Shown in pieces: positions 4,057-64,000 of a stretch of 64,000 bases of DNA. The stretch comes from Flavobacteriales bacterium (GTDB taxonomy: Bacteria; Bacteroidota; Bacteroidia; Flavobacteriales_C; GCA-002722245), in the NCBI GenBank assembly GCA_029251005.1, contig JAQXEE010000002.1, positions 210 through 64,209 on the forward strand, written 5' to 3'. Positions within the stretch are counted from its first letter, which is position 1; each line of letters starts with the position of its first letter. The position numbers and the translations under genes are program-made. The notes below the pieces were generated by a model. That model was not told where the DNA came from. It saw only the letters and a list, made by a program, of their open reading frames with translations, and searched no databases.

Positions 4057-4818
4057 ATGAAGTTAATATCTTGGAACGTCAACGGAATAAGAGCGGTAAT
4101 GAAAAAAGAATTCATGGACTCTTTTAAATCAATGAACCCTGATGTATTATGTTTACAAGAAACAAAAGCGCAAGACGATCAGGTTTTAGAAGCTTTAAAA
4201 GAAATTGAAGGTTACCATATATATACGAACTCAGCCGAGAAAAAAGGATATTCAAGCACTGCAATTATTTCCAAAAAAAAACCCATCTCTATTAATTATG
4301 GATTAGGCATTGAAAAACATGATAACGAAGGAAGGGTTATTACAGCTGAATACGACGATTTCTATCTCGTTACAGCATACGTGCCCAACTCTCAAAACGG
4401 CTTAAAAAGATTAGATTATAGAATAGAATGGGATGTCGATATAAAAGCATACCTCCAAAAATTGGATAAAAAGAAACCTGTTGCTTTTTGTGGAGATTTG
4501 AATGTAATACACACCGAAATGGATATTAAGAACTACAAAAGCAATTACAATAAATCTCCTGGTTGTACTCAAAAGGAAATCGATGGATTAGAAGCTTTTT
4601 TAAATGATGGTTTTACAGATACCTTTAGAGCTTTACACCCTGAAGAAGTTAAGTATAGCTGGTGGAGTTACCGCTTTAATAGTCGTGAAAAAAACACAGG
4701 TTGGCGCTTGGATTATTTCTTAACAAGTGATCGAATTTTAAACAACGTTAAAACAGCTGAAATTCATAACAATATATTCGGATCAGATCATTGTCCGGTA
4801 AGTATAACACTGGCATAA
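4057..4818 (+). CDS. xth: Exodeoxyribonuclease III (AP endonuclease)
   Basis: ISWNVNGIRA, LCLQETKA, YVPNS, GDLNV, YSWWSYR, GWRLDYF, GSDHCP. Confidence 0.97.
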   Translation: MKLISWNVNGIRAVMKKEFMDSFKSMNPDVLCLQETKAQDDQVLEALKEIEGYHIYTNSAEKKGYSSTAIISKKKPISINYGLGIEKHDNEGRVITAEYDDFYLVTAYVPNSQNGLKRLDYRIEWDVDIKAYLQKLDKKKPVAFCGDLNVIHTEMDIKNYKSNYNKSPGCTQKEIDGLEAFLNDGFTDTFRALHPEEVKYSWWSYRFNSREKNTGWRLDYFLTSDRILNNVKTAEIHNNIFGSDHCPVSITLA

Positions 4819-4879
4819 ATGTGACTTTACGGTATGATTAGTGTTAAGTATTTAAGAGCTGCCTTCAACCTGCCAAATT

Positions 4880-7231
4880 ATGAAATCAACTTTACTCCTG
4901 TTAACCTTTCTTTTAGCGTTTAAAGCAAACGCAAATTACGACGTAATCATTCAAGTATATGATAATAAAGGTCAGCAGGCTAGGAATCTCCCAGTAGTGC
5001 TAATCGAAAAGGATTCCAAAAAAGCACATCGTTACTTCACCAACTCTTTTGGAAAAGTATCGATAGTACTAACACCTGGTAAATGGAGTGTGAACATCAA
5101 TACAATGAAGCGGTGTCAATTCATTGAAGTTCCTGAAAAAGGAAGCGGTGCTTTAAATTTCATGATTACATATGACCCTAAACATTGGGCGAGACTGAAC
5201 CGCCCAGTTGTAAATCGATCAAGCATAAACTTCCAAACATTCAATCAAAGTAAGCTTAAGAAAAAAGAAAGACCCAAAATAGGGCATTCCTTTGTTAAAC
5301 TAGAACTAAAACAACTCAACAAAAAAGGATTAGCAAACTTCCCTGTCACAATTACCTGCTATAACACAAAGTCACAATTCCAATCGAAAACAAATAAAAA
5401 TGGAGAAGTTTTGTTTGAAGTTCCAAACGAAAACGATTATGAAATTGATTTAGAAAGGAATGAAAGCTTCTCCTATGTTGATATTGGTAAAAGAAGTGGA
5501 CTTTTCACTAAAAAGTTCACTTACCAACCACTTCAAATAAATGAAAATGAGCTTAATGACACCATTACGCAAGAAATACCAATAGCAGATAACAAGTTTG
5601 CATCTTCTGCTAGAGCCTTTTTAAAATTAAGAGTCAAGAATTACAACGATGACATGGAAGGTGAACCTGTTTATTTAAAAATGTTAAAGTCTAATAAAGT
5701 TTACAAGTCTAAAGTCAGAAAAGACGGTCAAGCTCTTTTCATGCTTCCACTACATCGTCGTTACATGATTGAAACTAACTACAAAAAAGCAATCGATGTG
5801 ATTGATTATATGGATTGTAAGGTTCAAAGCATCGTTAGAAGTGAAGATATGTTCACTTTCGACTTAAACTACAAAGTAAAGTTCCCCGAACGATATTTAC
5901 CTCAAAACAAAAACGACTATACTGAATTTTCATCAGAAATTTTCAAACCAAAAACGCACGATCAAGCGTTAGAATACTTTAACCTCTTTTTACAAAAACA
6001 ATATCCAGAACCAACTGGGAAAGAAAGTTTTGGAGCTTATTTAAAATGGGCAACCCCAGAAATTAATGAAAACTCAAAAGAAGCCCTTTTGGAAGTTGGC
6101 TTTGTAGCAAAAGAAATATCAAGCCTTAGCGACATCCCCAAAAGAACCAAACCAATAAACATCTCCTTTGTAATTGATTTAAGTGGGTCGATGGCAGGAG
6201 AAGAAAGATTAGAAGGTGTAAAAAAAGCACTTAAAAAAATACTAAAGCAGTTTCAACCTAATGATATTGTTTCCATCACTACTTTTAACAGAAGTGCTAC
6301 AGTAGTTGTTCCCGCAAATACAATGAGTAAACAAAAACTTATTTACGATATAATTGATGACCTAAGAGCAGGTGGTGGAACAAACATTTATGAAGGTTTA
6401 AAATCAGGGTATCCTCAATTGGAAAAAAATAAAATAGCCAACGCTACCAACAGGTTAGTTTTGCTAACCGATGGATACGGATCAACACCAGTTGAAAAAC
6501 TCATTTCACACACTAAAACTTATCACACAAAAGGATTTGAATGCTTGGCTATTGGTGTAGGAAGTGGTTACAACGAGGCACTAATTAGTCAGTTAGCAAC
6601 GGCTGGCGGAGGTTTAATGTACTTTGGGGGGAACTCAAATAAGCTGAATAATGTTTTTATAAAAGAGTTTTTTAGTACTACAGTTCCATTTGCCGAACAA
6701 GCTTCAATCGAAGTGTATTACAAAAAACAATTGGTTTGGAAACAGTTATACGGTAATACCGCTACCCTTACTCAGGGAAAAGCAAACTTATCTTTAGCAA
6801 ACCTTTACCCAGGAGTTAATAAACTAATGCTAATCAAGTTTGACTTAAACAATCCAACCAAAGAAATCGAAAAGTCCCCTGTCAGGGTAATCATGAAATA
6901 TAAAGACTTACAAAGCGGAAAATCCCAAATTGTAAAAAAAGAGGAGCGACTAAAATGGAAACCTTCGGACGGCTCTAGTGATTACCTAGTAGAAATGAAT
7001 AAAAAAAGAATTCAGGCTGTTGCCACAATGAATCAGGCGCTAAAAGTAATGGCTCAACAACATTCTTCAGGAAATAGCAAAGCAGCCCATCAAACACTTA
7101 TTTTCACCAGGAATCAAATCAAAAAAATATTTCCGAATGCAGTTGAAAAAGATATTTATTCAATGCTAGCGGTAATGGATGATTATGTTAAGACATTTGA
7201 ACTCTTTTTTAACAAAAAAAACGCTGAATAA
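4880..7231 (+). CDS. Secreted VWA-domain protein with N-terminal repeated beta-sandwich domains
   Basis: Signal peptide; MIDAS DLSGS...GGGTN...LLTDG; YfbK-like C-terminal region; three 'TNxxG'-type repeats in the N-terminal half. Confidence 0.8.
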   Translation: MKSTLLLLTFLLAFKANANYDVIIQVYDNKGQQARNLPVVLIEKDSKKAHRYFTNSFGKVSIVLTPGKWSVNINTMKRCQFIEVPEKGSGALNFMITYDPKHWARLNRPVVNRSSINFQTFNQSKLKKKERPKIGHSFVKLELKQLNKKGLANFPVTITCYNTKSQFQSKTNKNGEVLFEVPNENDYEIDLERNESFSYVDIGKRSGLFTKKFTYQPLQINENELNDTITQEIPIADNKFASSARAFLKLRVKNYNDDMEGEPVYLKMLKSNKVYKSKVRKDGQALFMLPLHRRYMIETNYKKAIDVIDYMDCKVQSIVRSEDMFTFDLNYKVKFPERYLPQNKNDYTEFSSEIFKPKTHDQALEYFNLFLQKQYPEPTGKESFGAYLKWATPEINENSKEALLEVGFVAKEISSLSDIPKRTKPINISFVIDLSGSMAGEERLEGVKKALKKILKQFQPNDIVSITTFNRSATVVVPANTMSKQKLIYDIIDDLRAGGGTNIYEGLKSGYPQLEKNKIANATNRLVLLTDGYGSTPVEKLISHTKTYHTKGFECLAIGVGSGYNEALISQLATAGGGLMYFGGNSNKLNNVFIKEFFSTTVPFAEQASIEVYYKKQLVWKQLYGNTATLTQGKANLSLANLYPGVNKLMLIKFDLNNPTKEIEKSPVRVIMKYKDLQSGKSQIVKKEERLKWKPSDGSSDYLVEMNKKRIQAVATMNQALKVMAQQHSSGNSKAAHQTLIFTRNQIKKIFPNAVEKDIYSMLAVMDDYVKTFELFFNKKNAE

Positions 7232-12391: not shown

Positions 12392-12904
12392 TTACATTTT
12401 TTGAATTTCGGCGATTGCCTTTTTAAGCCTAGACTCCCTATCTCCCTGTATTACACAGACTTTTTCATTATTACTTATTAAAAGTTCTTTATATCGATCA
12501 AACAATCTAACTCGATCTTTCGGATCAGAATGTTCTCTAAATTCATCATATTCCCATGGCAAATCAGTATCGCACAAAAGGTATAAATCACAGGTTGACT
12601 CTTTTATATTAGTTTCAACAAACGGAATCTCTTTTTGATATACCTCTTCAATCCAAACCTTGTAAACGTAAAGATCTGTATCCAATAATTTTAGGGACTG
12701 ACTAGAATCGAAGAACTCATTCTGAGTCTTAATTTGACCTTTCGCCATCTTAATAACATCATCAAATGTATACTCAGCTCCATTTAACTCTAAATAAGTT
12801 CGAGCATACTCCTTAAGAAAATCTATCTTAAAAAAGCGCGCTAAATCTTCACACAAGGTTGACTTACCAGTTGATTCAGGTCCGATTACAACAACTTTTT
12901 TCAT
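12392..12904 (-). CDS. NadR-type P-loop kinase/ATPase (AAA_28)
   Basis: Walker A GPESTGKST, EYARTYL, LLDTDLY, DLPWEYDEFR. Start moved to ATG 12904, which forms an ATGA overlap with the pnuC stop. Confidence 0.85.
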   Translation of the reverse strand: MKKVVVIGPESTGKSTLCEDLARFFKIDFLKEYARTYLELNGAEYTFDDVIKMAKGQIKTQNEFFDSSQSLKLLDTDLYVYKVWIEEVYQKEIPFVETNIKESTCDLYLLCDTDLPWEYDEFREHSDPKDRVRLFDRYKELLISNNEKVCVIQGDRESRLKKAIAEIQKM

Positions 12905-13470
12905 GATTTCAGGTATTCTTTTTTCCATTCAAAATATGCATAGGCAGCTAACACAGTATAAGCCAACATCAATCCTGCATAAATATTCAAGTCACTATTC
13001 CAGTACATTATTGATGTAAAAGCATCGATTATAATCCAATACAACCAACAGCTTAACCACCTTTTAATGGTAATCCAAGTAGCTAAAAAACTAAACATTG
13101 TAGTGAATGAATCCAGCATTGGCCTCGTTGCATCTTTTAAAATAGAACCTAGTAAAAAATACAATCCAAAACTTAAAACAATACCCAAGCCAATCAGCAA
13201 GGCATGATTTACTAAAGGTACTTTTAACACCTTTCTCTCCCGTTTGGGTTTATTCCATTCCACCCAACCAATTACTCCTGTAACTACATAATAAACAGAT
13301 AAGATGGCTTCAGCATAAAGTTTGGAGTAATGCCAAAAAAGGAAAATACTAACTGCCGAACCTAAAATCCCGAACAACCAGCACCAAATATTTCTTTTAG
13401 CCGCAAGTGCAACATAGGCTACTCCAAAAATAACAGATAAAACTTCAAGAATAAATGGTAGGTCTAGCAT
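12901..13470 (-). CDS. pnuC: PnuC-family vitamin transporter (PnuT-like by context)
   Basis: Multi-TM; NIWCWLFG, GWVEW, LDSFTT, WLYWIIID. Confidence 0.9.
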   Translation of the reverse strand: MLDLPFILEVLSVIFGVAYVALAAKRNIWCWLFGILGSAVSIFLFWHYSKLYAEAILSVYYVVTGVIGWVEWNKPKRERKVLKVPLVNHALLIGLGIVLSFGLYFLLGSILKDATRPMLDSFTTMFSFLATWITIKRWLSCWLYWIIIDAFTSIMYWNSDLNIYAGLMLAYTVLAAYAYFEWKKEYLKS

Positions 13471-13914
13471 TTAAAATGGGAAAATTATAAAAAAACGAAA
13501 TTAATTAGAATTGATAGGATATTCTAACTAATCCAATATTTGTTAGAAATTAAACACTTGTAGCTTTTTCTTGTTTTAGGTGAAAAATATGCTTCACAAT
13601 TGCTTAAAAAACATAACGGATTGTCTTTCTACTATTGAAATTAATCTAATTTTTCACTTTTTTAATCCGCTTTAACGGCGGAAACGGCATTGCACAAATC
13701 AACACTAAATTCCCTCATTATATTAAGCTACAGTTGTAGTAGTAAAATTTAAACCCAAGACTATTACAATAAAGTAAAACCTTTTTCACTTCTTAAGAAA
13801 AAACTTTAAAGACAACGTAAAAACGCTGTAATTCACAACGAACACTTAAGAACATTAACATCTTAAGTAGCTGAAAACGATATGATAAATGTAATTTCAC
13901 ATTTATCCAATTAA

Positions 13915-14928
13915 ATGACGAATCTGGTCAACTGTATACTCGCAATTACACTTTCTCTAACAATATGTTACGGACAAAGAGTAAATGACAAGTACATCAA
14001 AAAATTTCCGTTTGCAGTCACGTTGAAACCATTTATAGGGGCTAAAACCAATGAATTAAAAATAGAGGATAATTTAGGGTCAGGAAAAATAAATTATAGA
14101 GTTGCGACCGCTCCTAGGGTTGGATTAGGTGTCTCATATAAATGGTTCAATATCTCTTCTTCTTTTTTTAGAGTTGGCGAAATAGACAAATCAGAAAAAG
14201 GGTTAACACAAGAATTTGATTTACAATGGAACCTGTACTTAAGATTCATTAATGCTGATGTACGCATACAACGTTACGAAGGGTATTTTTTAAACAACTC
14301 CTCTGATATTTTAAATTGGGAATCTAACAGAGGTTTATTCTACCAACGAAATGATTTGGTAACCGCATCAATTGGAGGAAATATTAGATACAATTTTAAT
14401 TTTCGAAAATACTCCACAAAAGCAATTTTCTCACAAACTGAAAGACAATTAAGAAGTGCAGGATCTCCCGAAATTGGAATTCGGTGGAATTTATTGTTTG
14501 TAGAAAGTGATTCGAGTATTGTACCCAACAACTTAAAAAATAAATTATCAGACTTTAATCTTAACCAAATGGCGTTTTCAGATATTGGAATTGGAGCAGG
14601 TTATAGTTATACTTTTGTTCGTGGTAAATGGTTTTTTAACGCAGGAGCCATGGGTTTTATTCTTGCCCAATCGGTTAGTTTTATTGGAGATGAGATAGCT
14701 CACGAACAAACTGGATTCCAAGTTAACTTCCAAAGCAGAGGAGCTATTGGCTATACAAACGATAATTTTTATTTTGGTTTAAACGTTGTAGCTGACCAAA
14801 TGTATTCGAATTGGCAAAAACAAAAAGATATTTTATATACCTTTTCAAAAACAAAATTAATTTACGCGAAAAGAATTCACACAAGACCTTTAAAAAAAGA
14901 CGAACTTTCCATTTGGGATCAATTTTAA
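13915..14928 (+). CDS. DUF4421-family outer-membrane beta-barrel
   Basis: GLGVSYKWF, YEGYFL, YSTKAIFSQTERQLRSAGS, GAGYSYTFV. Confidence 0.75.
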   Translation: MTNLVNCILAITLSLTICYGQRVNDKYIKKFPFAVTLKPFIGAKTNELKIEDNLGSGKINYRVATAPRVGLGVSYKWFNISSSFFRVGEIDKSEKGLTQEFDLQWNLYLRFINADVRIQRYEGYFLNNSSDILNWESNRGLFYQRNDLVTASIGGNIRYNFNFRKYSTKAIFSQTERQLRSAGSPEIGIRWNLLFVESDSSIVPNNLKNKLSDFNLNQMAFSDIGIGAGYSYTFVRGKWFFNAGAMGFILAQSVSFIGDEIAHEQTGFQVNFQSRGAIGYTNDNFYFGLNVVADQMYSNWQKQKDILYTFSKTKLIYAKRIHTRPLKKDELSIWDQF

Positions 14929-56721: not shown

Positions 56722-56747
56722 TAAAAAATGGGCCACAAGCCCATTTT
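56722..56747 (-). terminator. Intrinsic terminator after the 69-aa ORF
   Basis: aaaatgggc-cacaa-gcccatttt 9-bp stem with a U tract on the minus strand. Confidence 0.7.
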
Positions 56748-56766: not shown

Positions 56767-56976
56767 TTAATTTAATAAAAACTTGTTCCTTTTAAATGTT
56801 TCCATCAATGCTAAGGTTACAGGGTATTTTCGAACCTCTTTCATCTCATACCTTTTAACTGCCAATTTCTTTAGATTTAAAATTTTAACCTCTTCATTTG
56901 TTAAATTCTCTTTTTCAAAAATATCTGCAATATCGTCTAAGGTTTTTAAGTATTCAGAAGTAGAGTTAATATCCAT
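56767..56976 (-). CDS. Small protein resembling the N-terminal (non-HTH) part of HigA-type antitoxins
   Basis: I.S..EY...L..I..IF.K..LT.EE...L......V..YE...YP pattern; followed by a terminator. Confidence 0.5.
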   Translation of the reverse strand: MDINSTSEYLKTLDDIADIFEKENLTNEEVKILNLKKLAVKRYEMKEVRKYPVTLALMETFKRNKFLLN

Positions 56977-57030: not shown

Positions 57031-59040
57031 TTATCGCGTCCTTGTAACTGTCGCAATATCAACGAATAAAAAGTCTCTTTTTCTTTTTCTCTCCTTAACT
57101 AAGTCATCAATCTTAACCACTAATCTTACCTGAACAGGTTGTTTTGCTCTTTGTAAAAATATATCATTTTCATCTTTTGCCTTGAGCAAAATAAAATAAT
57201 GCTCCTTCCAACTAACTTTTATCGGAGAATCCAACTTTACTAAATACCAATCTTTTTCCCAGGATAAAAGCTCTCTCTTAACGACCTCTCCCTTAATTGG
57301 AAAATGGTTAGACAATACTCCATAATCACCGTAGCTATCAATTGTCACTTTTGCACCAATTATTTCCTTTAAGTTAAAGTGTTTTACATCTAACCTAGGA
57401 ATACTAAAAAGCAAGTTCCAATCCCAAAATTTGAGTGGCGCCCAATAGTTTGGGATATAATCAAACCTACTTAATTTAGATGTTAAAAAAATTAACAAAA
57501 ACAGTCCTGAGTACAAATCTTTTTGCAACTCATTGTTCGCAACTTCAGCATTAAAACGCCAAGCCATCATGAGATATTCGAACAAGAAAATAGCAGACAA
57601 CCCAAACAATAGATAACTATTTAATCTATCGGGATTGTATGTCCAAATCACCTTTCGATTATAACTATTATTTAAACAATTATTAATCATCGAAACCCAA
57701 AGCACCATGCTAATCAATAACCAAATAAATGTAATAAAACTAAAACTTCGAGCAATTCTGTTGATCAACCAAAAATCATAAAACCCGTGAAAAATGGCAG
57801 CCAACATGTAGAAAAATCCAAAATAAAACAACCAGTTTCTTTTCTTAGCAAATTTACCTATTACAACTCCATAGGCTACAAGTGAAGTATTAAACATATG
57901 AGTTACTGTTGATGAAAGAGAACGCCCTTGAATAGTACTTAAACCTCCTTCGTCAAAGTAAATAAGGTTCTCTACAAAAGCGAAACCCAAAGCAGATATT
58001 GAAGCAAAAACAATATAATCTATAGGCTCTTTTAACTTCTTAGAGAAAATCATAACCAAAACAAGGGGAATAATTTTCACGAACTCTTCAATCATTCCTA
58101 TCCCGATTACAGAATATAAAAAATCATGGAAAAATGAATCTTCAAATTTAAATCCTAAAACATTAGTGTTGAAATCAGTTAAAATGGAAGTCCCAAAAGC
58201 GAAAAACATACCTAAAAAAAGAACTTCAATAGCTAACAACCACCTCTTTTTAAGATACTTATGAATAAAAATCAAATAAACAAACCAAACAATTAGAATC
58301 AATAAAGCCCCCATAAATCCAATAGCATTAACACCGCTAAAAAATCGACTAAAAATAGCTTTCGAATACCCTTCTACGTCTCTTAAATAAAAATAGGTGT
58401 ACCGCTTTACTTTGTTAGGAGTATTGGCAAAAGCTGTAGAATCTTGAAAAAAACTTAACAGTTCGTATGGTTTTTCGTATCGCTTATAAGTATTAGCCAA
58501 TTCCCTGTAGGCTAACTTATTAGTAGGGTTTGAAATAATTTCGATTCTTAAGTATTCAACAGCCTTATCATAATTTGCAAACCCAAAGTAACTACCATAT
58601 ACAAAGTTTAGGTAATCCATCTTTTGATTGTGAATCCCTACAAAACTAGAAAGCGATTCTTCAGCTAAACCCAAATGAAAGAAACAGACTCCCCTTCCAA
58701 ATTTACCGATATCTGAAATTTCATCAAACGGATGACAAGACATTCTTGTATAATATTCAACCAATTTGTTGTTGCTTGATTTTAATTCGAGAGAGGAGGG
58801 GTCATATTCTGAAGCAATCTTAAAATGTGTTGCAATAAAATTAAAGTGATGAGCTACATTTGAGCTATCCTCTTTAATTAATTCAGCATAAATTTTATTT
58901 TGATTGTGAACATCGCCTAAAATAATATACTCCTGAAGTTGTTCTAACTTATTGGAGTAATTTGAATCCGAAAAAAAATAATTCACCACCCCCACCATGA
59001 GTAGTGTAATTGGAAGAATATATAGTAGAATTTTTTTCAA
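57031..59040 (-). CDS. PrsW-family intramembrane glutamic protease with N-terminal TPR-like and C-terminal soluble domains
   Basis: GMIEEFVK, LGFAFVENLIY, THMF, FHGFYD; TPR-like helices in aa ~30-230; TTG start 9 nt after the previous gene. Confidence 0.88.
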   Translation of the reverse strand: MKKILLYILPITLLMVGVVNYFFSDSNYSNKLEQLQEYIILGDVHNQNKIYAELIKEDSSNVAHHFNFIATHFKIASEYDPSSLELKSSNNKLVEYYTRMSCHPFDEISDIGKFGRGVCFFHLGLAEESLSSFVGIHNQKMDYLNFVYGSYFGFANYDKAVEYLRIEIISNPTNKLAYRELANTYKRYEKPYELLSFFQDSTAFANTPNKVKRYTYFYLRDVEGYSKAIFSRFFSGVNAIGFMGALLILIVWFVYLIFIHKYLKKRWLLAIEVLFLGMFFAFGTSILTDFNTNVLGFKFEDSFFHDFLYSVIGIGMIEEFVKIIPLVLVMIFSKKLKEPIDYIVFASISALGFAFVENLIYFDEGGLSTIQGRSLSSTVTHMFNTSLVAYGVVIGKFAKKRNWLFYFGFFYMLAAIFHGFYDFWLINRIARSFSFITFIWLLISMVLWVSMINNCLNNSYNRKVIWTYNPDRLNSYLLFGLSAIFLFEYLMMAWRFNAEVANNELQKDLYSGLFLLIFLTSKLSRFDYIPNYWAPLKFWDWNLLFSIPRLDVKHFNLKEIIGAKVTIDSYGDYGVLSNHFPIKGEVVKRELLSWEKDWYLVKLDSPIKVSWKEHYFILLKAKDENDIFLQRAKQPVQVRLVVKIDDLVKERKRKRDFLFVDIATVTRTR

Positions 59041-59049
59041 ATTATTGGA

Positions 59050-60033
59050 TTATCCGATCATAAGTGGAAGTTTTACAAAGTATTCATCAGCAGTGGATAA
59101 TTCGGAAACACCCGATGCTCTATTATATAACTGATATCTTTGCTTAAGGTTATTTATAAATCGATCATTTTTGACATTATTTTTCAAAGACGGAGGATTG
59201 GATGTTTTAACAACAACAAACTTTCCATTTTCGATGTAAACTTCGATCTTCAATCCAATCTCTGATGCGCAATTATAATTCTTAAACTGATTATCTAAAA
59301 CCATTTGAAAAACTAAAGGAGGAATATGAGTTTTATAAAAATCTTCGGATAAGTTTAACAATAATTCTATTTTCTGATTTAGGTGTATTTCTGCCAATTC
59401 ACAATATTCCTTAACGTTTTTCAACTCAGCACCTAATCTTACAAACTTTTCATCCCTGCTTTGCAATAAATATCTTAAAATAGAAGTTAATTTTTCAACT
59501 TGAACCATAGCAATAGTTTGATCCTTCTTTATTAAATCAATAGTATTGATTAATGATTCTTGTAAAAACTCAATTACATTTTGAGATTTTAAAGCGTTAA
59601 AATTTTGTTGTAAATAATTTTGCTTCTCTTGGGTTAAAATTTGTTGAATGTTGGCGTTTTGTCGTAAACAAAAACAAACGCTTTGAAAAACTCCTGTAAT
59701 GAAAATTACACCTCCTAAAACAAGCTGAATTTCAACAAGAGTAGTTTCCGAAAAATTGAGACTAAACTCTAAAAAACGATAAACTATAAATCCAAAAACA
59801 AACCCAGCAACAGTGTAAGAAATACAGAAATTGAAAAACGTCCAATATTTACTCTTAACAAACTGTTTCACAAGTATCCGCCCTATTCTCATAGTGCTTA
59901 AGCAAAACAAAAATGCAAATAACCATATGTAAAAAACAGCTATTCTAACACTAATTATAATAGCGCCTGACGTTAAGAGCACACTTAAAATCAAAACCAC
60001 CAAAAACCTTACCGATGTTAAACTTTTAAGCAT
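59050..60033 (-). CDS. LytS/YehU-type sensor histidine kinase homolog, predicted catalytically inactive
   Basis: About 4 TM helices, then ALKSQ..., KLTSILRYLL, VRLGAEL..V..Y, IPPLVFQMVLDN, N.KQRYQL, FVKLPL. H-box reads VIEFLQES instead of NPHFLFNS; the GxG box is missing. Confidence 0.85.
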   Translation of the reverse strand: MLKSLTSVRFLVVLILSVLLTSGAIIISVRIAVFYIWLFAFLFCLSTMRIGRILVKQFVKSKYWTFFNFCISYTVAGFVFGFIVYRFLEFSLNFSETTLVEIQLVLGGVIFITGVFQSVCFCLRQNANIQQILTQEKQNYLQQNFNALKSQNVIEFLQESLINTIDLIKKDQTIAMVQVEKLTSILRYLLQSRDEKFVRLGAELKNVKEYCELAEIHLNQKIELLLNLSEDFYKTHIPPLVFQMVLDNQFKNYNCASEIGLKIEVYIENGKFVVVKTSNPPSLKNNVKNDRFINNLKQRYQLYNRASGVSELSTADEYFVKLPLMIG

Positions 60034-60260
60034 ATAATTAAGTTAACACTTTTTCGACAAACAAATTTATATATCAAGTTTACACGTTAAATTTCACTGA
60101 GCGCTGACACCTCATCAGTACAAAAACTAAAATAATTATTATTTTTTTTTAAGATTTCTATTTAACTTTCTCCTTTTGAAGAGAAGAAGATCTAATTGGT
60201 GCGAATTACCTCATATCTTTACGACTTATTTTAAAACTAAAATATAACAAAAGATATATT

Positions 60261-62663
60261 ATGCGATTTCATATCTTATTGGCTTTTTTACTTGCATTCC
60301 TTTTTGGTTCAGCACAAAAAGGTATCGTATCTGGTAAGTTAATCGATCGCAATACAAAACAACCAATTCCATATTCGAATGTTGTTTTATTCAACTTAAA
60401 CGATTCCATCATTAACGGATCTATTACAAATGATCTAGGTGAATTTACAATCATAAACATCCCATGGGGTAAATATTACCTTTCTTTTCAATCACTTACT
60501 CACAAGGAATTAAAAACCGATCCCATTAATTTATCGACTTCTACCGTACAAATAAAATTGGGTGAAATAATTTTAAAGGAATCAACAAATTTGACGGATG
60601 AAGTAAGCATCAAAGTAGAAAGAGCTGCTGTAAAAATTGAACCTGCTAAAAAAACCTTTGATGTTGCTGCAACTGGAGCAGACGCTGGAGGAACAGCAAT
60701 AGATGTATTAAATAATTTACCTTCAGTTGATGTAGATGATAATGGAACCGTTAGCTTGAGAGGTAATAGCAATATCAGAGTTTTAATCGACGGAAAACCG
60801 GCTGGAGTTACCTCAGATGATATTACTTTAGTCATTTCTCAACTGCCGGCGAATTCCATTGAAACAATCGAAGTTATCACTGTTCCTTCTGCCAAATACG
60901 ACCCTGAAGGTGTTGGTGGAATTATTAACATCATTCTAAAAAAGGAAAAAAAGAAAGGTTACCGAGGTTCGTCTAGCATTTCGTACGCTGCAATTGATAA
61001 AGTTAATGCGAGAGTTTCTTTAAGCATCAATAAAAAAAAATGGGGTTTAAATACATCTTACAGTTACACCGATGGAACTTACTGGAAAAAAATAACAAGC
61101 GATGCTTCAACTTTAATTGATGACAGTTTAACCATTTTTAATAATCATCGAAATGCAATAAACCGTTTCCCTAATCACAACGCAAAACTAGAGGTTTCCT
61201 ACAAGGTTAATAAAATCACAAAACTTAACCTTGAAGGAACGGTAAAGAAAATGTTTTTTAATAATTTAGATTCTTCGGAACTTTATTGGAATTACGATCA
61301 AAAAAACATAATTGAAAACACTCGGAATTCAAATAAAAAAGGGCACAGACTAAGCGGTGGAGGACAATTTAGTTTAGTTTCAAAATTTAAAAATGGAAAT
61401 TCAATAAACTTTCTTTCAAGATTAAAAGGCGTGAATACGCCTAAAGAAGGTTACTTTGACGAGCCTTACCTCTTGCAAAAAGAAACTAGAGTATTTGGTG
61501 CTCAAAATATAGTAAATCAACTCGATTTAACTTTCCCAATTAAAAAAGCAACTAATGACACTGTTAACCTAAAGTATTTAACAATTGAAACAGGCTTAAA
61601 GTCAGCATTTCGTGAATTTCATGAAAATTATAGTTTCTTCGATTACAGCCCAAGTTTAAATAGCTATTATGAGCAAACTTCATTTTCAAATGATTTGAAA
61701 TACAGTGAAAATGTTTATGCTATATATGGTTTATTAAACTTAGGAAATAAAAACTATAAGGCTTCATTTGGGCTTCGATCTGAATATTCAGATATTATTT
61801 CTGAAGCTGCCGGAAATAAGTTTAACAAAGCACTATTGAACTTATTTCCAAGTGCCTCAATAGTTCGTTCATTTTCGGAAACGAGATCGTTATCAATCAG
61901 TTATGGTAAAAGAATAAAGCGACCGCGTGGGAAACAACTCAATCCTATTCCGAGCTACTCCAACCCCTACAGTATTTTTATTGGAAACGCAGAATTAATT
62001 CCAGAGAAAAGTCACATGAGTGAAATATCCTACTTAAACATAGCCAAAAAAACCACCTTTAACGGAACCGTATTTCATCAATTCCGAGATGATCGCTTAG
62101 GAAGATTAAGCTACACCGATTCTATTACAGGAACATCAACTGTAGAATGGTATAATTTCAAATTTCACCAAACACTTGGTTTAGAATTGTTTGCTAATTT
62201 CAAAGCGAAAAAATGGTTTAAAATAAATGGATCAAGTACATTTTATAACACTTGGGTTGATGGCTCTAACTTCAGAGAAAGTTACACTGCTGAGTATTTT
62301 GGATACGATTTAAAAACCAATCTCCAATTTCAACTTGCTGCAAATACAAATTTAACAATCACGGGTGATTACAATTCAGCTCGTATAGCTGTAGTTGGAA
62401 CTGTTATTCCTCGTTATGGCTCTGACATATCCGTTAAACAAAAGTTATGGAAAAAAAAAGCAACGCTTTCGGTAAGGCTAACAGATGTCTTTAAGACGAG
62501 AGGCTTCGGTATAGATGTAAATACCGATAACTGGGAAAGAATAGTTAGATATCGATATGAATCACAATTATTGTGGGTTGCTTTTAGCTATTCATTTGGT
62601 CAAACTAAATTTGGTGGTAAAAGAAATTTTAAAAGAACCTCTCCCAACGATCGTAGCTTTTAG
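60261..62663 (+). CDS. TonB-dependent receptor-like outer-membrane protein (OMP_b-brl_3 type)
   Basis: Carboxypeptidase-regulatory-like domain, plug (DVLNNLPSVDVD..G.VSLRG, VLIDGKP, PSAKYDPEG.GGIINI.LKK), RIKRP, GNAELIPE, FSYSFG near the end. Confidence 0.9.
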   Translation: MRFHILLAFLLAFLFGSAQKGIVSGKLIDRNTKQPIPYSNVVLFNLNDSIINGSITNDLGEFTIINIPWGKYYLSFQSLTHKELKTDPINLSTSTVQIKLGEIILKESTNLTDEVSIKVERAAVKIEPAKKTFDVAATGADAGGTAIDVLNNLPSVDVDDNGTVSLRGNSNIRVLIDGKPAGVTSDDITLVISQLPANSIETIEVITVPSAKYDPEGVGGIINIILKKEKKKGYRGSSSISYAAIDKVNARVSLSINKKKWGLNTSYSYTDGTYWKKITSDASTLIDDSLTIFNNHRNAINRFPNHNAKLEVSYKVNKITKLNLEGTVKKMFFNNLDSSELYWNYDQKNIIENTRNSNKKGHRLSGGGQFSLVSKFKNGNSINFLSRLKGVNTPKEGYFDEPYLLQKETRVFGAQNIVNQLDLTFPIKKATNDTVNLKYLTIETGLKSAFREFHENYSFFDYSPSLNSYYEQTSFSNDLKYSENVYAIYGLLNLGNKNYKASFGLRSEYSDIISEAAGNKFNKALLNLFPSASIVRSFSETRSLSISYGKRIKRPRGKQLNPIPSYSNPYSIFIGNAELIPEKSHMSEISYLNIAKKTTFNGTVFHQFRDDRLGRLSYTDSITGTSTVEWYNFKFHQTLGLELFANFKAKKWFKINGSSTFYNTWVDGSNFRESYTAEYFGYDLKTNLQFQLAANTNLTITGDYNSARIAVVGTVIPRYGSDISVKQKLWKKKATLSVRLTDVFKTRGFGIDVNTDNWERIVRYRYESQLLWVAFSYSFGQTKFGGKRNFKRTSPNDRSF

Positions 62664-64000
62664 GCTTTTAATTCCTCTAATAAATCCTTCAACTTCTCAA
62701 TAAGTATCCCTACTTTTTTCTTAAGTGATAAAATTCCATCATTGCTTCTAGCATCAAGCTCAACTTGTAGTAATAAATTATATATTGAAGTATTCCCTAA
62801 TATTTGAATGTTAGGTTTCATTTTATGACAAATAGAGCCTAACTTCTCACGATTTAATTCTGAATTAAAAGCAATCAGCATTTCCAAATCCTTGGGTATT
62901 TCAGATTTAATCTTATCTAAAATTTTCAACATTAGCCGTTCACTCCCCCCAACATAATCAAGCAAGAAATTCCTGTCCCATAATTTAGGAACATTTAAAC
63001 TCAACGCAGTAGAATCATCTAAATCAAATGCTAACGAAGGTAATTCTCTAGTATTTAATAACTGACTTATTTTTTGATATAATTCTTCAGGTTTGTATGG
63101 CTTAGATAAATATTCGTCAGCTCCCGCAGCTTTACATTTGTCCATTTCTACCTCAGAAACATGTGCTGTTAAAGCAATAATAGGCACATTAAAACCAGCC
63201 GCTCTCAACTTCCGAATGGCTTCATACCCGTCCATAACAGGCATTTGCATATCCATCAATATCAGAGCATGCTTTTCTGGATCAAAAAGGTTAATTGCCT
63301 CTTGTCCATTCACTGCTAATTCTACTTCCGCTTCAATCTCATTCAACAAATCGGTTACCACTAATTGATTTACAGGATTATCTTCTACAAGTAGTATATT
63401 CGTACCACCAAGTTTTAAATCCAAATTATCGTTGGATACTGAAATGCTCGACTCAGATATTTTTTTAAAAGGATATAAAATTTCAAATATAAAGGATGAA
63501 CCTTTTTCTTCTTCACTCACTATAGAAACAGACCCTCCTTGCAATTCTACAAGCTTTTTTACAATAGACAATCCTAAACCGGTTCCTCCAAATTCACGAG
63601 TTGTACTTGAGTTAGCCTGACTAAACTCGTTAAATATTTTAAACTGTTGTTCTTGTGAAATTCCAATTCCTGTATCTGTTATGGTAAACCTCAACAATAC
63701 ATCCTCGCCTGACATTTCCACAGCATTCACGGTTAGTGTTACACTTCCTTCTTGTGTAAATTTAACAGCATTATTAATCAAATTATACAATATTTGATTA
63801 AGTCTAACGGAATCTCCAACTAATACTTCTGGCAGATCATTTTTGTGATAATTAGCAACTAATTCAATGCCCTTCTCTAGTGCTTTCCCCTCAAAAACAC
63901 CAACTACAGAACTCAAAAGGTTAATAAATAAGAACTCTTTTTTCTCCAAAGAAAGCTTTCCCGCTTCTATTTTTGAAATATCAAGTATGTCATTAATAAT
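62660..64000 (-). CDS. Hybrid sensor histidine kinase (HisKA-HATPase-REC-HPt), 5'-truncated by the window edge
   Basis: The frame stays open to 64000 (IINDILDISKIEAGK); NLINNAVKFT, DTGIGI, GGTGLGLSI, LLVEDN, ILMDMQMP, HPt CHKMK. Confidence 0.95.
   Translation of the reverse strand: MINDILDISKIEAGKLSLEKKEFLFINLLSSVVGVFEGKALEKGIELVANYHKNDLPEVLVGDSVRLNQILYNLINNAVKFTQEGSVTLTVNAVEMSGEDVLLRFTITDTGIGISQEQQFKIFNEFSQANSSTTREFGGTGLGLSIVKKLVELQGGSVSIVSEEEKGSSFIFEILYPFKKISESSISVSNDNLDLKLGGTNILLVEDNPVNQLVVTDLLNEIEAEVELAVNGQEAINLFDPEKHALILMDMQMPVMDGYEAIRKLRAAGFNVPIIALTAHVSEVEMDKCKAAGADEYLSKPYKPEELYQKISQLLNTRELPSLAFDLDDSTALSLNVPKLWDRNFLLDYVGGSERLMLKILDKIKSEIPKDLEMLIAFNSELNREKLGSICHKMKPNIQILGNTSIYNLLLQVELDARSNDGILSLKKKVGILIEKLKDLLEELKA

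Follow-up and report, generated by a model that had tools for sequence, protein, structure and literature searches.

What can a LytS-type sensor do once it has lost the residues for phosphotransfer, and when the gene that follows it encodes an intramembrane protease? The question is raised by a locus in a 64,000-nucleotide stretch of Flavobacteriales DNA (GenBank assembly GCA_029251005.1; here called the window), which lies on contig C6 (67.6 kb) of a 2.9-Mb assembly in 161 contigs. Three open reading frames (ORFs) occupy positions 57031-62663 of the window, and an earlier sequence-only reading had proposed that they form a phosphorylation-independent signalling module. All three ORFs are confirmed with unchanged boundaries:

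57031..59040, minus strand: PrsW, a long glutamic-type intramembrane protease (669 amino acids, aa; assigned by Pfam and fold model)
59041..59049, minus strand: spacer of 9 nucleotides (nt) between the pseudokinase stop codon and the TTG start of PrsW
59050..60033, minus strand: orphan LytS-family pseudo-histidine kinase (327 aa; assigned by PF06580 match, residue comparison, fold and substitution rates)
60261..62663, plus strand: OMP_b-brl_3 receptor, a TonB-dependent-receptor-like outer-membrane protein (800 aa; assigned by Pfam and orthologues)

The pseudokinase-PrsW operon is real and constitutes a previously undescribed variant within a narrow clade. Both pseudo-histidine kinases and proteases of the PrsW type were known before; joining them in one operon is new, and the literature search found no paper linking PrsW with PF06580 or OMP_b-brl_3. 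Catalytically dead kinases are not in themselves rare; the locus stands out by its protease partner and by the lack of a live kinase or regulator nearby. The locus is best explained as a clade-specific envelope module of two transcription units, with the receptor gene divergent from an operon of the pseudokinase, PrsW and, probably, a 69-aa ORF.

The catalytic state of the 327-aa protein was read from an alignment that included three live LytS paralogues encoded in this genome and some 40 orthologues. The protein matches PF06580 (His_kinase) over residues 145-221 with 32.9 bits against a gathering cut-off of 25.2, the second weakest of the genome's PF06580 matches, and has no HATPase_c (PF02518) match at E <= 0.1. 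The canonical H-box SQxxPHF(L/I)FN is replaced by SQNVIEFLQES, which puts Glu155 at the position of the phospho-acceptor His. This position is Glu in nearly all orthologues and Ser, Ala or Gln in a few, and there is no His at or adjoining it. Asn248 of the N-box is kept in the window copy; across orthologues the position is N, E, K, Q or H. The G2 box, canonically GxGLxN, reads DRFINN in the window copy, R291 and I293 replacing the glycines, and (R/K/Q)FINN is found in all members. These substituted motifs, QIEKLTSILRYLLQSRDE and FINNLKQRYQLYN, are conserved in their own right and are specific to the pseudokinase family. A profile of the family matches the solved LytS-type kinase GanS (6swj) with E 5e-15 and aligns the family Glu on the GanS His. 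The sequence-only reading had described the gene as a dead-looking LytS-type sensor, and the lost His, the altered G2 box and the GanS alignment bear this out.

Despite these losses, the architecture of a histidine kinase is recognizable in the AlphaFold2 model (predicted local distance difference test score, pLDDT, 78). Four transmembrane (TM) helices (about residues 5-120) are connected on the outside by loops of 3-6 residues. In the cytoplasmic part, a long helix leads into a hairpin resembling a DHp domain (dimerization and histidine phosphotransfer; about 125-192), followed by a degenerate alpha/beta domain resembling a CA domain (catalytic and ATP-binding; about 200-327). Foldseek searches with this model return GanS (E 8e-8), BceS, DesK and CpxA, along with two pseudokinase-like proteins, RetS and DivL. 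Measured against species G001 of the genus, the sole unsaturated comparator, the ratio of nonsynonymous to synonymous substitution rates (dN/dS) of the pseudokinase is 0.31 overall, 0.40 in the TM part and 0.16 in the cytoplasmic part, compared with 0.07 for PrsW, 0.10 for the receptor and 0.045 for the neighbouring symporter. The pseudokinase is under purifying selection, strongest on the cytoplasmic domain.

A partner for conventional phosphotransfer was sought by profile search of the contigs, which found seven PF06580, eight LytTR, one PrsW and three OMP_b-brl_3 genes in the genome; five of the PF06580 proteins are live LytS kinases, and four of the LytTR proteins are orphan regulators. 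As noted from the letters alone, no LytTR domain is encoded at the locus: all eight LytTR genes are on contigs other than C6, and no LytTR regulator occurs at any of nine orthologous loci. By residue comparison, the 327-aa protein is a genuine pseudokinase, predicted to be incapable of phosphotransfer, that has kept its histidine-kinase fold and membrane anchor. Because the H-box His, a conserved Mg-ATP Asn and the ATP-lid glycines are lacking, no response regulator is encoded locally and selection is purifying, it is a well-supported prediction that the protein acts by binding to other proteins.

The second gene of the operon shows the opposite catalytic condition. PrsW matches PF13367 over residues 267-444 (E 6.8e-27; 94.7 bits against a cut-off of 23.5), and at its TTG start all orthologues have an aligned Met. 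The residues E318/E319, E357/N358, H381, H418 and D422 (motifs EE, FxxEN/ExN, H and HxxxD) are invariant in 47 homologues, down to 26% identity. Since all catalytic residues are kept, PrsW is predicted to be an active protease. With NF033739, the equivalog model of Bacillus subtilis PrsW, it scores 47 bits, below the cut-off of 225. The structural model (pLDDT 86; predicted template modelling score, pTM, 0.79) contains, in order, an N-terminal TM helix, helical repeats (about 31-236), the PrsW core (about 239-457), a further pair of TM helices (470-524) and, last, a beta-rich domain (about 564-667). The label of tetratricopeptide repeat (TPR) protease that the sequence-only reading had given to PrsW finds no support in Pfam (TPR_16, E 0.17) but does find it in the predicted fold, as the helical-repeat domain matches consensus-TPR proteins and MamA. 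Sequence comparison with the PDB gives weak TPR matches only and no match for the C-terminal beta domain. Judging from the model helices and the positive-inside pattern of the loops, the TPR-like domain would be periplasmic and the C-terminal domain cytoplasmic.

The two genes are on the same strand, and their spacing at orthologous loci, from a 4-nt overlap to 41 nt, is always tight. A joint transcript, suggested beforehand as a check, is supported by metatranscriptome contigs from two independent runs, X29 (58952-59128) and X30 (59009-59163), which bridge the pseudokinase-PrsW junction at low depth and may hold DNA. A first metatranscriptome set (X25-X28) was fragmentary and left this junction uncovered. 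Co-transcription is likely, and the genes are probably tightly coupled at the level of translation. Another RNA contig (56595-57141) joins the 3' end of PrsW to a small downstream ORF, and the sole good terminator-like hairpin of the unit sits past that ORF:

56767..56976, minus strand: conserved 69-aa ORF, 54 nt downstream of PrsW, with no Pfam match
56725..56747, minus strand: terminator-like hairpin, a 10-bp stem followed by a T run, just past the 69-aa ORF

The 69-aa ORF is present at 57-90% identity in all genomes of the genus and is probably the third and last gene of the operon. Scans for sigma-70 promoters and for the Bacteroidetes -33/-7 pattern performed no better than on shuffled sequence.

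The block occurs in six further species of the genus, uncultured marine Flavobacteriales known from metagenome-assembled genomes (MAGs), for example FRAM18_bin212, SP330, SP250 and LRMED-117. The gene order in the genus is receptor, pseudokinase, PrsW, 69-aa ORF, symporter, kdsA and rlmI. The triad of receptor, pseudokinase and PrsW is found in all five genus genomes in which the region is assembled whole (5/5); in G006, the contig begins within the pseudokinase gene, so that just this gene and PrsW are visible. On its own, synteny within the genus says little, because the housekeeping neighbours are syntenic too. Three metagenome contigs (L029, L030 and L032) carry the triad at greater distance, with 39-44% identity for the pseudokinase and 54-55% for PrsW, and with both flanks different. 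On the left, these triads are flanked by genes for saccharopine dehydrogenase and a primary sigma factor; on the right, by a glycosyltransferase and ParAB in L029 and L030, and by DUF4340 and an ABC transporter in L032. The 69-aa ORF follows PrsW in L032 and is not found there in L029 or L030. Adjacency of the triad has survived at least three changes of both flanks. The only sigma factor near any triad locus is a four-region, primary-type protein of 290 aa in L029 and L032, and no gene for an extracytoplasmic function (ECF) sigma factor or an anti-sigma factor is present at these loci. When 185,579 species were scanned, each represented by a single genome, the pseudokinase family turned up in only eight, all of them uncultured marine MAGs. 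The gene arrangement is thus real, and conserved where it occurs, yet young and narrow. The adjacency anticipated for related genomes thus holds in the genus and in the three rearranged metagenome contigs, but PrsW orthologues of neighbouring genera have no kinase-like neighbour.

The receptor has a signal peptide and matches CarbopepD_reg_2 (36.9 bits), Plug (34.8 bits) and OMP_b-brl_3 (PF14905; 229.8 bits, E 8e-68), with no STN signalling domain at E <= 0.1. No sigma/anti-sigma pair is encoded at its locus, so that the hallmarks of a FecA-type TonB-dependent transducer are lacking. Orthologues share 58-93% identity within the genus, 47-52% in the three metagenome contigs and 52% in genus g2. 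The statement of the sequence-only reading that receptors of this type often stand beside intact LytS/LytTR pairs agrees with the four loci tested (C133 of the same genome, G022:C49, G022:C50 and G033:C7), in each of which an OMP_b-brl_3 gene is divergent from a kinase gene with an intact PHFLFN motif, followed by a REC-LytTR gene. The window receptor shares only about 25% identity with the C133 receptor. Its closer relatives, in genera g2 and g4, pair with a 221-aa signal-peptide gene and have no kinase neighbour, and the g2 genome with the receptor orthologue contains no detectable PrsW or pseudokinase.

This 221-aa gene, small221, accounts for the DNA between the divergent genes. It encodes 221-227 aa with a signal peptide and no Pfam family, and it lies upstream of the receptor gene in the same orientation in G007, G003, G002, G005 and genus g2:

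60034..60260, no strand assigned: divergent region of 227 bp, containing the small221 relic (about 60180-60254, plus strand)
L014:4409-5074: intact copy of small221

In the window, tblastn recovers 25 aa of small221 at 52% identity; the last ~75 nt of the gene survive, and more weakly about 200 nt. DNA alignment reveals a deletion of ~610 bp, common to the window and G001, that also took the ancestral intergenic region by the pseudokinase start. The gap between the divergent genes does measure 227 bp, as the sequence-only reading gave it, but the DNA that it had called intergenic is mostly the relic 3' end of the deleted small221. As this deletion altered it, conservation of the divergent control region does not extend across the genus.

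Two further arrangements involving receptors were recorded. At C133:5148-10508, an OMP_b-brl_3 receptor gene (787 aa, minus strand) is divergent from a kinase gene of the live LytS type (342 aa, with PHFLFN intact). The latter shares 23 nt with the next gene, whose PF06580 product (302 aa) has neither the His nor G-boxes, and a gene for a REC-LytTR regulator (240 aa) comes third; this live-kinase plus dead-kinase cassette is a paralogous module. The window pseudokinase is not a close relative of the C133 paralogue (BLASTP E 0.49). On the other side of the window receptor, a hybrid histidine kinase gene (62660-64000, minus strand; HATPase_c, a receiver and a C-terminal helical region) is convergent on the receptor gene, their ends overlapping by 4 nt. 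It was ruled out as a member of the module, as it stands beside the receptor only in G001 (75% identity) and unrelated genes take its place in the other species.

Whether the dead sensor and the protease work together is a matter of weighing. Given the tight coupling of their genes and an adjacency kept through flank rearrangements, we infer, with a probability of roughly 45%, that pseudokinase and PrsW are functionally coupled and that the pseudokinase is a non-catalytic partner: a gate, a recruiter or adaptor, or a substrate. It would gate PrsW, recruit it or be cleaved by it. The contact would most likely be made by the conserved cytoplasmic DHp/CA-like surface of the pseudokinase with the cytoplasmic C-terminal domain of PrsW, and the periplasmic TPR domain would face the outer membrane and the receptor.

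A number of observations weigh against such a coupling, above all an obligate one, and lend no support to a dependence of PrsW on the pseudokinase. A sister group of pseudokinases, comprising genus g4 and about 19 metagenome relatives, stands alone at every locus examined:

L020:8012-8992 (G013:C6), also L050 and L051: sister pseudokinase, between rlmH (SPOUT methyltransferase) and ribBA

The sister proteins share the family motifs and lack G-boxes, with H, Q or Y at the H-box position. In G013, the sister pseudokinase is on that genome's contig C6 and the PrsW orthologue (47% identity) on its contig C24. Genus g3 (eight genomes) has a PrsW orthologue at 40-44% identity, and no pseudokinase-family member was found there. 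Five more distant long-PrsW loci have no PF06580 neighbour, their neighbours being gldN/phoH, the trp operon, glycosyltransferases and hybrid kinases; PF06580-PrsW adjacency is absent from these five and from 13 relatives outside the genus that have a long PrsW. A scan of PrsW for group-specific substitutions between triad and non-triad lineages yielded only three conservative ones, and adaptation of PrsW to its partner was rejected on this negative result. Substitutions accumulate quickly in the pseudokinase TM region (dN 0.21 against G001), in contrast to the membrane core of PrsW, which is 95% identical; this argues against a specific TM-TM interface between the two proteins. The RNA evidence, finally, consists of low-depth Logan contigs from metatranscriptomes, with possible DNA carry-over.

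The same sister group settles the history of the link. As it is catalytically dead and unlinked to PrsW, kinase loss came before the association with PrsW, and the pseudokinase state is older than that link. The sequence-only reading had the sensor rewired at this locus; this is not supported, and rewiring from an intact LytS/LytTR pair at this site was rejected, because the sister group is already dead and linked to neither PrsW nor a receptor, and because the C133 pseudokinase is not the nearest relative of the window protein. Each of the two proteins is able to work without the other, and the module is a recent assembly of components that function independently in sister genera.

These facts lend weight to a competing account, somewhat less probable than functional coupling, in which the two genes are neighbours for historical reasons alone. 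The target of the pseudokinase would then be encoded elsewhere in the genome: either a live LytS kinase, modulated by formation of a DHp heterodimer in the way that RetS affects GacS and much as FasB and FasC share their tasks, or an orphan LytTR regulator to which it docks. PrsW would be a housekeeping membrane protease, common to the whole family, that happens to be encoded next door. Sister pseudokinases without PrsW, PrsW orthologues without a pseudokinase in genus g3 and beyond, and the lack of triad-specific divergence in PrsW all fit this account, and the genome's five live LytS kinases and four orphan LytTR regulators offer possible partners. The C133 cassette, with a His-less LytS paralogue between a live kinase and a LytTR regulator beside an OMP_b-brl_3 receptor, also speaks for it, and heterodimerising kinase-like pairs encoded upstream of a LytTR regulator have been documented (PMC12675982). 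Against it stand the tight spacing, the junction bridged by RNA contigs and an adjacency that persisted while both flanks changed at least three times; identity between the pseudokinase and the live kinases of the genome is no more than about 20-26%, which leaves no obvious heterodimer partner. A scheme that goes beyond functional coupling is a full relay across the envelope, in which the TPR domain of PrsW reads a signal from the receptor and PrsW cleaves an anti-sigma-like pseudokinase, releasing or destroying a bound transcription factor that controls the receptor gene. It draws on the conservation of the triad, receptor included, as a unit, on the presumed periplasmic position of the TPR domain (positive-inside pattern on the model), on the intact catalytic residues of PrsW, and on the pattern of conservation in the pseudokinase, which is highest on the DHp face, the usual docking site of a receiver domain. 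Yet the 3-6-residue periplasmic loops of the pseudokinase offer no RsiW-like extracytoplasmic target for site-1 cleavage, the receptor has no STN domain, the g2 genome has the receptor orthologue with neither detectable partner, the divergent promoter region was altered within the genus by the 610-bp deletion, and the module contains no transcription factor. The relay is unlikely.

Just as doubtful is a specific phosphorylation-free device, in which the TPR domain would read the state or cargo of the receptor and PrsW would cleave or release a pseudokinase whose dead DHp/CA part restrains an orphan receiver-LytTR regulator. If true, it would follow the logic of an anti-sigma factor, with a two-component scaffold and an intramembrane protease as its building blocks. 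Least credible is that the kinase-like gene is a functionless, decaying remnant or encodes a cryptic active kinase using non-canonical residues. The gene evolves faster than any other in the block (its identity to G001 is 82%, where its neighbours reach 93-97%), as decay would have it, but dN/dS is 0.1-0.3, the substituted motifs are strongly conserved, and the reading frame is open in every orthologue, more than 40 in number and as distant as 39% identity. A cryptic kinase could point to Asn248 in the window copy; against it stand the missing H-box His, the variability of that Asn across orthologues and the loss of both G2 glycines in all members.

Comparison with known systems places the locus between several of them. 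The pseudo-histidine kinases RetS, DivL and the FasB-FasC pair have as their targets live kinases or regulators within two-component pathways, GacS in the case of RetS. The window protein resembles them in having a histidine-kinase fold without phosphotransfer capacity, RetS and DivL are among its fold matches, and protein-protein binding would likewise be expected; its locus, however, encodes neither a kinase nor a regulator, and it is operon-coupled to a protease instead. FasC keeps the His and FasB keeps the ATPase domain (PMC12675982), whereas the window pseudokinase has neither. The C133 tandem cassette likewise maintains an intact gene for a His-less, G-box-less PF06580 paralogue, but there the pseudokinase gene overlaps that of a live kinase and precedes the LytTR gene, whereas the window protein has no live partner nearby. 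With the uncharacterised OMP_b-brl_3/LytS-LytTR arrangement of Bacteroidota, the locus shares the type of receptor, the divergent layout and a small multi-TM PF06580 protein as first gene. It differs in that the kinase is dead and PrsW takes the place of the REC-LytTR regulator. The locus thereby adds an unusual orphan case to the growing list of bacterial pseudo-histidine kinases, a case whose weight is limited by its occurrence in only eight species representatives and by parts that work separately in sister genera.

In the PrsW-RsiW-sigmaW pathway of B. subtilis, the PrsW-family membrane protease makes the site-1 cleavage of the anti-sigma factor. The window PrsW shares the PF13367 core with intact EE, ExN, H and HxxxD motifs, and a membrane protein from the same operon is again a possible substrate or partner. 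It is three times longer, however, having in addition a TPR-like domain, a further two TM helices and, at the C terminus, a beta domain, and in place of the ECF sigma/anti-sigma genes, which the triad loci lack, its neighbour is a four-TM pseudokinase with almost no periplasmic exposure. PrsW-family proteases are widespread and, to our knowledge, their substrates have been established only for a few anti-sigma factors of Firmicutes; we know of no role for the long TPR-PrsW form, which is conserved across many Bacteroidota. An operon partner offers the first concrete handle on that role. Elsewhere, long PrsW proteins occur in pairs and in other company. In genus g4, G013:C24 (L046) encodes two long PrsW paralogues ~7 kb apart (4248-5819 and 12631-14625; 30% and 47% identity to the window PrsW), and G012 and G014 have two each. 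In a Crocinitomicaceae MAG (L028:1-5562), a long PrsW (34% identity) is encoded directly 3' of a tandem pair of hybrid regulators (each about 1035 aa long, with TPR, HisKA, HATPase, receiver and AraC-type helix-turn-helix domains), which is a different kind of signalling neighbour for a long PrsW.

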